55,029 bases of DNA. Origin: a virus. Its lineage: Duplodnaviria > Heunggongvirae > Uroviricota > Caudoviricetes. The notes beneath the pieces are model-generated. The model was not told the DNA's origin. It did not search any database and saw nothing but the letters and a program-made list of their open reading frames with translations. The stretch's first letter is position 1, and each line of letters begins with the position of its first letter. A program made the translations under genes and the position numbers. The stretch is from the IMG/VR virus record IMGVR_UViG_2859793810_000007; one strand, 5' to 3'. Shown piece by piece: positions 39,461 through 50,883 of the stretch.

Positions 39461-39529
39461 CCACTTCAAAGAATTAAAGCAACCTATTGTGACAGGCAGC
39501 GATAACAGTAAATCACAGGAAGCATAATC

Positions 39530-40294
39530 ATGGCAAAACCGGACTGGGAGGCCATCGAATCGGCATACCGGGCCGGAGTCCTTAGCCTCCGTGATATAGG
39601 CGAGAAATACGGCGTTACAGAAGGGGCTATCAGGAAGAGGGCCAAAAAGCTTGATTGGGCACGCAGTGGCGGTACGCAGGTTTGCAAAAATGGTACGCAA
39701 AAAAGGAAAGTGCGTACCAGCAGAAAGCCTGCCATTACTGGCCTTACACAAAAAAGTACGCAACTAAAAACAGAATCTACACCGGATACGAAACCGATAC
39801 GCGGAATGCGTACCGATCCCCCGACTAACCCATTCCAACCCGGTAACCAGCAGGCATTAAAACACGGTGGTTATGCCCGTCGCCTTCTGCTCAAAGATGA
39901 GGTGATAGAGGACGCTAAAGCGTTGACGCTCGAGGACGAATTATTTCGCCTTCGTGCTAACAACCTTGTCGCTGCAGAGAATATTGGTCGGTGGTTGGTG
40001 TCGCTGGAAGATGCTAATGGGGACCAGGAAAGGAAGATGCTGATTGAAAATATCAGCGCCGCCGAGAAAGCAATGATGCGCAATACAGTTCGTATTGAGT
40101 CCATCGTTGGCACGCTTGCGACGGTAGGAAAAATATTTGCTGATACAGCCTACCGCAAGGCCGCCACTGATAAGGTGTCTCTGGAGGCTGATCGTCTTCG
40201 CCGTGATGCAGGTATTGATGATGGCAATGGAGAGCGTGACCTCAATGACTTCTACTCTGACATCCAAACCGACGCTGAATCCGGCTTTACGTAG
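39530..40294 (+). CDS. terminase small subunit-like protein (N-terminal HTH)
   Basis: 254 aa; HTH LSLRDIGEKYGVTEGAIRKRAKK; overlaps start of the terminase large subunit. Confidence 0.65.
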   Translation: MAKPDWEAIESAYRAGVLSLRDIGEKYGVTEGAIRKRAKKLDWARSGGTQVCKNGTQKRKVRTSRKPAITGLTQKSTQLKTESTPDTKPIRGMRTDPPTNPFQPGNQQALKHGGYARRLLLKDEVIEDAKALTLEDELFRLRANNLVAAENIGRWLVSLEDANGDQERKMLIENISAAEKAMMRNTVRIESIVGTLATVGKIFADTAYRKAATDKVSLEADRLRRDAGIDDGNGERDLNDFYSDIQTDAESGFT

Positions 40295-41003
40295 TTTCTG
40301 GACTATGCGGGCACGTAACAAAGTGCTTTATGGTGGTCGGTCATCGTCAAAATCATGGGATGCCGCTGGCATTGCCATATTTCTGTCGAATAAATACACC
40401 CTGCGTTTTTGTTGTGCCCGTCAGATCCAGAATAAAATCGAAGAGTCGGTGTATACCCTGCTCAAAATTCAGATAGACAGGTTTGGTCTGCGGCACCGTT
40501 TCCGTATTCTGAACAACAAAATCATTAACCGGGTTACTGGCTCGGAATTTGTTTTTTATGGATTATGGCGCAACATCGAAGAAATTAAGTCACTGGAGGG
40601 GATCGATATGTTGTGGCTGGAAGAAGCCCACGCACTGACGGAATACCAGTGGAAAATTCTGGAGCCAACGATCCGTAAAGAGGGTTCGGAATGCTGGTTC
40701 ATATTCAACCCCGGACTTGTTACTGATTTCGTCTGGCGCAACTTCGTTGTTGATCCGCCCGAAGGCACTCTCATCCGCAAAATTAACTATGACGAAAATC
40801 CGTTTCTGTCTGACACCATGCTTAAGGTTATCGACGCGGCGCGACGCCGTGATCCGGATGGTTTTAAACATGTGTATGAGGGCGTTCCGGAGTCTGATGA
40901 TGATGCGGCAATTAGACTGGCCCCCTGAATCTCCAGACAACCAGTATCACTTATTTAAGTGATAGTCTTAATACTAGTTTTTAGACTAGTCATTGGAGAA
41001 CAG

Positions 41004-41369
41004 ATGATTGATGTCTTAGGGCCGGAGAAACGCAGACGGCGTACCACACAGGAAAAGATCGCAATTGTTCAGCAGAGCTTTGAACCGGGGATGACGGTCT
41101 CCCTCGTTGCCCGGCAACATGGTGTAGCAGCCAGCCAGTTATTTCTCTGGCGTAAGCAATACCAGGAAGGAAGTCTTACTGCTGTGGCCGCCGGAGAACA
41201 GGTTGTTCCTGCCTCTGAACTTGCTGCCGCCATGAAGCAGATTAAAGAACTCCAGCGCCTGCTCGGCAAGAAAACGATGGAAAATGAACTCCTCAAAGAA
41301 GCCGTTGAATATGGACGGGCAAAAAAGTGGATAGCGCACGCGCCCTTATTGCCCGGGGATGGGGAGTAA
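41004..41369 (+). CDS. insC: IS2 OrfA (InsC)
   Basis: [41 protein letters not shown]... Confidence 0.85.
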
Positions 41370-42232
41370 GCTTAGTCAGCCGTTGTCTCCGGGTGTCGCG
41401 TGCGCAGTTGCACGTCATTCTCAGACGAACCGATGACTGGATGGATGGCCGCCGCAGTCGTCACACTGATGATACGGATGTGCTTCTCCGTATACACCAT
41501 GTTATCGGAGAGCTGCCCACGTATGGTTATCGTCGGGTATGGGCGCTGCTTCGCAGACAGGCAGAACTTGATGGTATGCCTGCGATCAATGCCAAACGTG
41601 TTTACCGGCTCATGCGCCAGAATGCGCTGTTGCTTGAGCGAAAACCTGCTGTACCGCCATCGAAACGGGCACATACAGGCAGAGTGGCCGTGAAAGAAAG
41701 CAATCAGCGATGGTGCTCTGACGGGTTCGAGTTCTGCTGTGATAACGGAGAGAGACTGCGTGTCACGTTCGCGCTGGACTGCTGTGATCGTGAGGCACTG
41801 CACTGGGCGGGGACTACCGGCGGCTTCAACAGTGAAACAGTACAGGACGTCATGCTGGGAGCGGTGGAACGCCGCTTCGGCAACGATCTTCCGTCGTCTC
41901 CAGTGGAGTGGCTGACGGATAATGGTTCATGCTACCGGGCTAATGAAACACGCCAGTTCGCCCGGATGTTGGGACTTGAACCGAAGAACACGGCGGTGCG
42001 GAGTCCGGAGAGTAACGGAATAGCAGAGAGCTTCGTGAAAACGATAAAGCGTGACTACATCAGTATCATGCCCAAACCAGACGGGTTAACGGCAGCAAAG
42101 AACCTTGCAGAGGCGTTCGAGCATTATAACGAATGGCATCCGCATAGTGCGCTGGGTTATCGCTCGCCACGGGAATATCTGCGGCAGCGGGCTTGTAATG
42201 GGTTAAGTGATAACAGATGTCTGGAAATATAG
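41327..42232 (+). CDS. insD: IS2 OrfB (InsD) transposase
   Basis: 301-aa DDE integrase-type ORF overlapping orfA. Confidence 0.85.
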
Positions 42233-48849: not shown

Positions 48850-48884
48850 CGCTTCAATGGGAAATTGTTGTCGCCATTGTTCGA

Positions 48885-49187
48885 TTAACGCGTATTTTTC
48901 AGCGACTCCTGTGCAAAATACGCTGTTGCTTTTTTTAATATATCGCGCTCAAGGCGAGCTTCATTTAACGCCTTACGCAGTTGCAGAATTTCAGATTCCA
49001 GTTCAGCCACCGTGCGGGAACCAGGAGTACCGAGCCCTTTTCTGGCGGCGGTAACCCATTGTCCTAAAGTGCCTTCAGGAAGGGATAATCGGGAAGCGCC
49101 TTCACTGATCGAAAGTTGATTTTCAAGAACCGTTCTGACAGCTTCGGCTTTGAACTCTTTAGAGTAACGTTGGGTTTTTCTGCTCAT
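48885..49187 (-). CDS. IS600 OrfA
   Basis: 100 aa, as copy 1. Confidence 0.9.
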   Translation of the reverse strand: MSRKTQRYSKEFKAEAVRTVLENQLSISEGASRLSLPEGTLGQWVTAARKGLGTPGSRTVAELESEILQLRKALNEARLERDILKKATAYFAQESLKNTR

Positions 49188-49251
49188 TATTAGCTCCTTC
49201 TGATGCCATTCTATTTCAGGAAGGAGTGTCCGTTAAACTCAGGCTATCTCA

Positions 49252-50883
49252 ATAAACCGTGCTGTGTAACTGCTGTGGATCAAATCTGACCACAACTTTT
49301 TTCACTCCGGCATTCATTAATGCCATGTTGTAATAAACGTTTTTCGCGCCTTTAAGGGAGCCGCCAACTTTAAGCGTAAACTCGCCTTTGCGTGAAACGT
49401 TCACCGCCTCGGCAGGCAGTAACAGCATCCGTTTTTGTTCTTCGGTTGGCTTACGCACAATCGTTCTGGCGTATTCACGCTCGAAAACATCATCAAACGA
49501 GAGTTTGCCCCCGCACATTTCTGTTTCACGGCCTGTTCTGGCATTGAACATCGCCACACCTTCGGCAAAGGTTTTCAGAAACAGCTCTGCATCAACAGCG
49601 TGGTCGCCATAGTTATCAGGTTTTGCCTGCGGATTTGGCCCCGTATATGCGCCAGCCAGTGCCGGATGCTTATCAACGTATTCCTCAAGCCCACCAACAC
49701 CGAAAGCACGTTCAACAGGTTTTGCCTGGCCCCAGCCTTTACCGGCAACAACGCTTGTCCAGTGCATTTTCGCACCCATCAGTAAAAACAGTCCTTTTGG
49801 ATCGTCCTCTTTTACCTTAAAGCGGTAGCGATTGGGCGCGCCTCCCGTCAGCCATTTATTCGCAGCACCACGGGTGTTATCAATGGTGATGTGAAAATCC
49901 TCCGGGATACTGTAGCGAGTCACAACATCCATGAACGAGAGGCGAATTGAATCAATGTTCTCGCTCACATCGCAGCGCCAGCCCAGAATTTTTCGGGTTT
50001 TCACATCCTGCCAGAACCATGTTTTCGGACGGATCACATCACCGTTAAACCAGCGTACAAAGACGTTATGCAGATAACCGTCGCCGTTGATCCACTGCAT
50101 GGCGTCCAGGTGTTCCACAGTTCGCTGCTGTGCCGGTATCAGATGCATCAGTGCATGTTCACCTTCACGACAGGCAACAACCATTGCCTCGTCCAGTTGC
50201 TGAATCCGGCGAAAGGCCGTGGCACGGGAGGGAATACTCCAGCCATGCTCGCGGGCTGCCAGTTCCAGACGCTCATAACATTTGCGGAAGGCGGGTTTTT
50301 CCGGTCGCAGATAATCTGCAATCAGAAACTGCCAGGCATCCTCGTCAAATTCACTTTTGTGAACATTGCGACGGGATGCTCCACGTCCATCAACAAGTGC
50401 AGCCGCCCAGTCAGGCTTCGCAAACTTCTGTACCTGGTAATACTTGTCCCGCAAAGTGGATGCGCTGACCTGGTAATGCCCTGCAACGGTCGCAAAAGCC
50501 GTTTTCGTTGAAATCCCCTGGTTCAGCATTTCGTCTGTGGCCTGAATTGAGGGCAACCATTTTTCAGCCAGGCTGCGCTGGGAATCGCTGGCTTTATCCC
50601 ATTTGCTCCATAGTGCCTCACGATCATAATCATGAGCTTCCAGCGTGGGGCGGGCGATTTCAAAACATCCCTGACTGGTTTTAAATTTTCCTTGTTGGAG
50701 CAAAACTTCAGCTCGAGCAATGTTAGGAAGAGAAGATATATGGTATTCGTAAGCAACCCCTCTAATTCCTTCTCTTCTTCTCTTGAGCCATCCTTCTCTC
50801 TGAGCTCTTTTGTGAACCCCCATTAATGAACCAGGTAAACCAGATAAACCCATGCATTCAATTGCTGATATCCACTCTCTCAT
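49252..50883 (-). pseudogene. A: Mu transposase A, 3-prime truncated by IS600
   Basis: 543 aa collinear with MuA (…[24 protein letters not shown]…[10 protein letters not shown]…); stop supplied by the IS600 terminal TCA. Confidence 0.9.

Follow-up and report, generated by a model that had tools for sequence, protein, structure and literature searches.

An IS600 copy at the junction of Mu-family and lambdoid prophage remnants in Shigella flexneri

The two flanks of an IS600 copy

The DNA analyzed here is a stretch of 55,029 nucleotides (nt), IMG/VR record IMGVR_UViG_2859793810_000007 (hereafter the window), in which a copy of the insertion sequence (IS) IS600 stands between two groups of phage genes. 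The IS copies of the window were located by repeat finding and boundary alignment; IS600 is present three times (c1, c2 and c3; Table 1), and c3 is our subject. Head genes on the plus strand and the Mu-type genes A and ner on the minus strand run into c3 from opposite sides, an arrangement that an earlier note on this DNA had pointed out and that mapping bears out. The element is a typical IS600: it measures 1264 bp, has TGAGG...CCTCA ends, encodes an orfA of 100 amino acids (aa) and an orfB of 272 aa, and is annotated in matching records as an IS3-like element IS600 family transposase. Its right inverted repeat (IRR) faces the head genes and its left inverted repeat (IRL) faces A. No 3-bp target duplication borders c3, whose flanks are AAT and ATA, as the note had also stated, and the same holds for c1 (GTT/CCC) and c2 (GAC/CTG); none of the six IS600 flanks within the window matches another. 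Since their flanks lack the 3-bp duplication, all three are recombinant copies.

To the right of c3, window positions 49252–52112 correspond to the left end of a Mu-family phage, running from Mu nt 2962 down to nt 1, with attL, c, ner and a truncated transposase gene (A') in the order of Mu. Identity to Mu is 97.8% over nt 1511–2964 and 91.7% over nt 1–447, and the Mu terminus TGTATTGATTCAC lies at window position 52112. The A' protein has 544 aa, compared with 663 aa in Mu A, and retains the Pfam domains HTH_Tnp_Mu_1, HTH_Tnp_Mu_2, DDE_2 and part of Mu-transpos_C; its stop codon, TGA, is provided by the IS600 terminus (49249–49251). Beyond the Mu end, from 52113 onwards, come the remaining 3' portion of dpiA, dcuC and pagP, with 99.3% identity to E. 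coli. Gene order and identity mark this segment as a genuine Mu-family remnant. It shares attL, c, ner and A with the Muvirus phages Mu, D108 and SfMu, and the 97.8% identity over A applies to Mu and SfMu alike; it differs from these two in keeping 2962 nt only and in a c-ner region that matches neither closely. Hybridisation bands common to most S. flexneri strains have previously been read as a remnant of an SfMu-like prophage (PMC4406740). No Mu late genes are present within the window, and the Mu right end, which lies outside it, was not located in S. flexneri.

The head module to the left of c3 has a different relationship. It is collinear over 7.2 kb with positions 20001–27207 of L001, the complete prophage located between ybhA and pgl in E. 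coli FDAARGOS_944, whose coordinates are used throughout; identity is 99.7% for window positions 39469–40912 and 99.3% for 42244–47987. This prophage carries, in order, an integrase, recombination genes, cI/cro, replication genes, a tRNA cluster, lysis genes, a PBSX-type terminase, a DUF1073 portal, a head morphogenesis protein, a DUF2213 protein, a cement protein, a DUF2184 capsid, a STY1053-family open reading frame (ORF), a DUF4054 gene, a myovirus-type tail, tail fibres and ipaH. E. coli FDAARGOS_943 has the same prophage with, in addition, an IS2 in the terminase gene, as in the window. Among deposited phages, Escherichia phage vB_EcoM-689R2 is closest to the head module (95%), followed by Salmonella phage SEN34 (82%). 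The head gene order is that of the E. coli prophage.

The earlier note had called the head module Mu-like, which the comparison with Mu does not support. When ten ORFs of the module were searched with tblastn against the whole Mu genome in all frames, the best E value was 0.055 and there was no match in the Mu head genes. No homologues of the Mu gp28 terminase, gp29 portal, gp30 (F), I or T were found in 39469–47987, and the gene described as I-like encodes, by Pfam, a DUF2213 protein. Mu itself has different late genes. In intact relatives the module is not continuous with Mu early genes and comes after the lambdoid int, cI/cro, replication and lysis genes. Its only link to Mu is a Phage_Mu_F domain; this domain is also present in the lambdoid prophage L001, and is therefore not specific to Mu-like phages. 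Gene content and identity thus assign the head module to a lambdoid, SEN34-like ipaH prophage of the ybhA/pgl site (prophage 2), and not to a Mu-like phage. The note's claim that genes lose their 3' ends at the IS holds for A; on the head side the capsid gene is complete, and the gene cut by c3 is the STY1053-family ORF, of whose 73-aa reading frame the last 23 nt are lost. Of the DUF4054 gene, the next in order, 12 nt are left before c3. We conclude that c3 is, almost certainly, an IS600-mediated joint between two unrelated prophages.

Prophage 2 is shattered in the window: its tail module is absent, its head module ends at IS600, and a 1.7 kb fragment with lysis and tRNA genes (36509–38219) is inverted relative to its own head module. 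The window contains two near-identical clusters of four tRNAs (28267–28577 and 37278–37587), one per lambdoid prophage, with Gly-tcc, Thr-tgt, Arg-tct and a CAT anticodon tRNA (Met by ARAGORN, Ile in RefSeq). Both clusters are on the minus strand, which confirms the inversion of the prophage 2 fragment relative to the head genes. The cement-protein gene encodes 118 aa in the window, whereas S. flexneri CP000266 (L213), like the intact prophage, has a version of 168 aa. Since this gene is shortened and the terminase gene is split by IS2, the head module is decaying.

Distribution of the joint and related arrangements

Both 30-mers spanning the ends of c3 were found in all 25 fetched loci that cover it. 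The window itself is Shigella flexneri chromosome. For the exact A' protein, 945 assembly blocks are indexed, and it occurs with the same neighbours in the S. flexneri-type chromosomes CP001383, CP012137, CP020342, LM651928 and others. Looking up the 254-aa ORF at the start of the head module and the ORF in which STY1053' is fused to IS600 retrieved further records, CP000266, CP026788, CP007037, CP033510, LR213452 and others, all with the order head module, IS600, A', ner, c, dpiA', dcuC. We take CP000266 to be S. flexneri strain 8401, CP001383 to be strain 2002017, and CP026788 to be a S. flexneri genome. Neither the Mu insertion in dpiA nor the c3 joint was found in any E. coli RefSeq genome.

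Copies c2 and c3 are inverted repeats on either side of 36509–47987, as the earlier note had recognized. Its suggestion of an invertible segment, with heterogeneity at the joint, found no support: a search for both orientations of c3 among genomes returned one and the same joint in every fetched locus spanning both sides. The c3 joint is a fixed, species-level feature of S. flexneri and not a switching segment. The resemblance to the Mu G segment with its invertase Gin is that inverted repeats flank a segment; unlike that system, the window has neither an invertase nor recombination sites, complete IS elements form the repeats, and c3 is seen in a single orientation in all genomes.

The position and orientation of IS911 copy 2, to the left of the head module, vary among S. 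flexneri strains. Most genomes have this second IS911 inverted and retain L001 19012–20001; in the window and in CP026772 the second IS911 is direct and this 1 kb is missing; other strains have a deletion between two IS911 copies or between two IS2 copies. The block 31986–39468, comprising a toprim gene, c2 and the inverted prophage 2 fragment, is structurally polymorphic (loci L016, L017, L019, L021, L188 and L210). Rare strains have private deletions beside or within the c3 flanks, namely L224, which lost 45861–47987, and L218.

Three sets of relatives resemble earlier states of the two flanks. In another genome (L105; IMGVR_UViG_2526164652_000004, 9185–11124) the head/IS600 junction is identical (AAT-TGAGGTG), and on the IRL side the IS600 runs into the tail-fibre region of this same prophage, at L001 42004 and without a change of orientation. 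L105 has lost its whole tail module in a deletion bounded by IS600, and it is likely to represent an earlier state. The junction of IRL with L001 42004 is found again in L189, L200 (CP026768.1) and the S. flexneri locus L188, where the other side of the element is L001 7547; these three also have a second IS600, between L001 7545 and 6623. A single ATA duplication is shared out between the two hybrid copies, a split that also exemplifies the 3-bp duplication rule for IS600 and argues that IS600 copies recombined to produce inversions within the lambdoid prophage. On the Mu side, L219 (GCA_903995745.1, CAJFAV010000003.1, 1–5961) has the same junction of Mu with dpiA at 99.8% identity; here com and mom survive, and the G segment (Mu 34521) is connected through an IS600 to Mu nt 275. 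Since L219 keeps com and mom, the Mu prophage at dpiA was once complete and is older than c3. The Mu prophage in dpiA has been degraded independently in different lineages.

Origin of the joint

The chromosomal context of the two remnants bears on how they came together. The window begins in ybhB, beside a second lambdoid prophage (prophage 1) at the lambda attachment site. The E. coli IAI1 chromosome has dpiA-dcuC at 657 kb, with dcuC on the minus strand, followed by modC-ybhA-pgl at 798 kb and ybhC at 806 kb; a prophage then precedes ybhB, which lies at 856 kb on the minus strand. dpiA and ybhA are about 141 kb apart in this order, and dcuC and ybhB, both on the minus strand, are 200 kb apart including the prophage. 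In the window ybhB is on the plus strand and dcuC on the minus strand, opposite to their relative orientation in E. coli. Beyond dcuC, pagP, cspE, lipA and dacA follow in forward order, with at least 10 kb of synteny. With respect to E. coli, the ybhB side thus runs backwards and the dcuC side forwards, and the prophage remnants are where the two meet; no simple deletion can explain the arrangement.

We consider it quite probable that c3 is a hybrid IS600 produced by homologous recombination, most likely in a single chromosomal inversion of ~150 kb between dpiA and ybhA. One of the parental copies would have resided in gene A of a Mu-family prophage integrated in dpiA, and the other at the boundary of head and tail genes in the lambdoid ipaH prophage between ybhA and pgl. 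Successive inversions between IS600 copies inside the lambdoid prophage may have placed a reversed head module beside the left arm of that prophage. A further exchange with the oppositely oriented IS600 in Mu A would then have inverted the segment from dpiA to the left arm, about 150 kb, bringing the Mu left end beside the already inverted head module. The predicted product, A' / IRL...IRR / head, has the orientation observed, and the IS orientations at c3 (IRR to the head module, IRL to A') are those expected after an inversion from a state such as that of L189 and L200. That the event was an inversion at all is somewhat favoured by this evidence; its size and the order of the preceding steps would follow from the same reconstruction. 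The more specific proposition, that c3 is one end of a species-wide inversion of ~150 kb between dpiA and ybhA, with IS600 copies in the Mu and the lambdoid ipaH prophages as its endpoints, has in our judgment slightly better than an even chance. The joint itself is a fixed scar without function. Both prophages are dead, with A truncated, the terminase gene interrupted by IS2 and the tail module lost.

Several results weigh against this reconstruction, foremost among them the failure to find the other products of the exchange. The reciprocal junction called for in the earlier note, joining the 3' part of Mu A through IS600 to the remainder of the cut head gene, was looked for in IMG/VR and not found: an exact-pattern scan for IS600 IRR followed by TAT and Mu 2963 onward (TGCTACACC) gave no match, nor did a scan for IS600 IRL followed by AAT and L001 27208 onward (the DUF4054 start), while the known head-joint pattern, used as a control, retrieved 6 contigs. 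A metagenome scan for IS600 IRR, TAT and Mu 2963 onward likewise gave no match, but there the control pattern was equally without one, so that this collection does not count as evidence. The joint of L001 6625 with IS600 IRL, which the reconstruction predicts, was seen only in L190, from an IMG taxon other than the six with the c3 head joint. It was not found in the genome_contigs set, which includes two S. flexneri-type genomes and where the control was positive; at least one of these genomes, CP178302.1 (also L004), has many fragmented gene calls suggestive of sequencing errors, and such errors could hide an exact 34-mer. The viral contigs of the six S. flexneri taxa with the joint yielded no Mu B, and among the matches listed there was no large cluster of fragments of the A 3' part or of the DpiA N-terminus. 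The evidence for a hybrid IS from single-nucleotide polymorphisms (SNPs) is also weak: c3 has only two private SNPs, at positions 5 and 604 from IRL and so in its IRL half, and the SNPs among the IS600 copies are too sparse for a crossover to be placed from their mosaicism. A later deletion may have removed the right part of Mu, or the event may not have been a simple inversion.

The search for reciprocal products also returned candidates that were discarded. C-terminal fragments of Mu A led to a different Mu-like prophage (L014, L227, L228 and L229), 86–87% identical to Mu and SfMu over the segment from the A 3' part to B; in it the inside end of an IS10 lies at Mu nt 2942, which is only 20 nt away from the position of IS600 in A. 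That three independent contigs start at Mu 2964–2966 is probably due to a break in the assembly graph, where 23 nt are common to them and the A' remnant, and not to a reciprocal joint. DpiA N-terminal fragments were only E. coli frameshift variants. The best 80 DUF4054 relatives in IMG/VR were all intact prophages, with neither IS600 nor Mu. Integrase fragments are cut by IS1 at L001 2908 (int') and linked to ybhA, mod and gal, and their contigs stop at the IS1. A walk along the lambdoid left arm by way of the Gam variant P0209 ended in a different prophage, one linked to sitABCD. S. flexneri has a third related lambdoid remnant (L232–L239, e.g. CP182555.1 at 1.33–1.35 Mb) near a ZnuA/ABC-transporter cluster, which we read as sitABCD, and another ipaH. 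Between this remnant and the ybhA/pgl prophage the Gam and AAA-ATPase genes are 99.6% identical, and this near identity complicates the search for the missing left arm.

The earlier note had proposed that c3 arose within a single Mu-like prophage, in which recombination of an IS600 in A with an inverted copy in the head region of that prophage had turned an internal segment around. The convergence of A and ner on head genes across an IS600 without target duplication, and the one head protein with a Phage_Mu_F domain, would suit this proposal. It is nevertheless highly improbable: it is refuted by the >99% collinearity of the head module with the lambdoid ybhA/pgl prophage, whose head morphogenesis gene has the same domain, and by the tblastn comparison with Mu described above, no better than E = 0.055 for any of the ten ORFs. 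The protein families DUF1073, DUF2184 and Terminase_3, as opposed to Terminase_6N in the Mu-like prophage L014, speak against it as well. What probably stands of the proposal is the class of mechanism, with c3 a recombinant IS600 whose flanks derive from two separate insertions, one in Mu A and one at the end of a head gene cluster, and with inversion as the best fit; what falls is its location inside one Mu-like prophage. Arrival without inversion is unlikely, yet less so: an IS600-flanked circle may have reintegrated at the IS600 of Mu A, a tandem duplication may have left its joint on resolution, or several deletions may have followed unrelated inversions. A duplication or circle would likewise link a higher to a lower E. 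coli coordinate with orientation kept, as this joint does, and neither a reciprocal joint nor the Mu right part was found. Such routes require more steps than one inversion from a state like that of L189 and L200, the IS orientations fit inversion, and the linkage of int' with ybhA, mod and gal is kept in draft assemblies with the Shigella-type integrase fragment.

Direct transposition of IS600, by an intramolecular event leaving an adjacent inversion or deletion, would also account for a c3 without target duplication, and deletions directly adjoining c3 are seen in individual strains such as L224. IS3-family elements transpose by a copy-out, paste-in route via a circular intermediate, and adjacent inversions are not a normal outcome of it. 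L105, with the identical head/IS600 junction and a different partner, points instead to a resident insertion that later exchanged partners, so that we consider transposition very unlikely compared with homologous recombination between resident copies. A false contig join through IS600, a multi-copy repeat of 1.26 kb, can be given practically no credence, since the joint is present in 25 independent loci, many of them from chromosome-sized records of 4.4–4.7 Mb.

An origin of c3 by recombination between resident IS600 copies has ready parallels. IS-mediated chromosomal inversions and translocations are known in S. flexneri; inversions, some attributed to IS600, have been documented by comparison of Sf8401 with Sf301 (PMC1550401), and rearrangements have been surveyed (PMC8072062). 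In these cases, as at c3, dispersed IS copies including IS600 recombine, and the breakpoint copies lack target duplications. The difference is that the c3 breakpoint is common to all S. flexneri loci fetched, and for this reason it predates the strain-level inversions of those reports. We found no paper describing the c3 joint. It is an ordinary IS-driven Shigella rearrangement, which adds a further case to a familiar process and illustrates how the ipaH prophages were shattered by IS600, IS911 and IS2; it raises no new mechanistic question. Its recognition sets right an easy misannotation, that of taking two adjacent phage remnants for a single Mu-like prophage that includes head genes, and, being common to every locus fetched, the joint can serve as a dated structural marker. 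If the species-wide inversion is real, c3 would be a lineage-defining structural marker of S. flexneri, beside an ipaH-prophage cluster that IS911, IS2 and IS600 still reshuffle in present-day strains.

Other features of the window

Table 1. Features of the window around and beyond the c3 joint.
Feature	Position	Strand	Remarks
Prophage 1 late genes	1–24864	minus	
Prophage 1 ipaH	1060–2823	plus	
IS600 copy 1 (c1)	24865–26128	minus	Between lysis and terminase genes of prophage 1; direct repeat of c3
Prophage 1 lysis, Q and replication genes	26130–31985		
IS911 copy 1	31986–33234	plus	Direct repeat of IS911 copy 2; no target duplication
IS600 copy 2 (c2)	35272–36508	plus	27 bp shorter; flanked by the prophage 1 toprim gene and prophage 2 position 18176
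Prophage 2 fragment	36509–38219	minus	L001 18176 to 16465: holin 5' part, tRNA cluster, DUF1133 3' part
IS911 copy 2	38220–39468	plus	Joins L001 16465 to L001 20001; no target duplication
Prophage 2 head module, start	39469–40912	plus	L001 20001–21444: 254-aa ORF and 5' part of PBSX-family large terminase
IS2	40913–42243	plus	Inside terminase gene; 5-bp duplication GCAAT; same insertion in E. coli FDAARGOS_943
Head module, remainder	42244–47987	plus	L001 21440–27207; begins with terminase 3' part
DUF1073 portal	42977–44443	plus	Pfam
Mu-F-domain head morphogenesis protein	44295–45077	plus	Pfam Phage_Mu_F
DUF2213 protein	45081–46301	plus	Pfam
Cement protein, shortened	46305–46661	plus	
DUF2184 major capsid gene, complete	46806–47747	plus	
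STY1053-family ORF	47789–47987	plus	Cut at 47987; 73 aa in intact prophage
IS600 copy 3 (c3), the joint	47988–49251	minus	IRR end to head module, IRL end to A'
Truncated Mu transposase gene A'	49252–50883	minus	Mu nt 2962 to start codon; ORF 49249–50883
Mu ner-like gene	50858–51112	minus	84 aa; Pfam HTH_35; annotated Ner in matching Mu and D108 records
Mu-type repressor c	51266–51775	plus	169 aa; Pfam HTH_Tnp_Mu_1
Mu left end (attL)	51776–52112	minus	Mu nt 1 at 52112, TGTATTGATTCACTTGAAGT on minus strand
dpiA 3' part	52113–52454	plus	Mu insertion after codon 113; followed by dcuC, pagP

The c2 copy of IS600 differs from the others by a 27-bp in-frame deletion in orfB (at about 36027–36035), which shortens the product to 263 aa from 272. 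At the c2 position other strains have a full-length IS600 (L016), and the deleted variant is present elsewhere in the L189 and L196–L205 genomes.

To the left of c2, a prophage ORF of 619 aa (33201–35060, minus strand) matches Toprim_2, with weak matches to Hint (below the Pfam cut-off) and LAGLIDADG, which suggests a primase-like gene with an intein. IS911 truncates this ORF at its 3' end, and the ORF is 99% identical to genes for toprim domain-containing proteins in E. coli O157 and O111 prophages.

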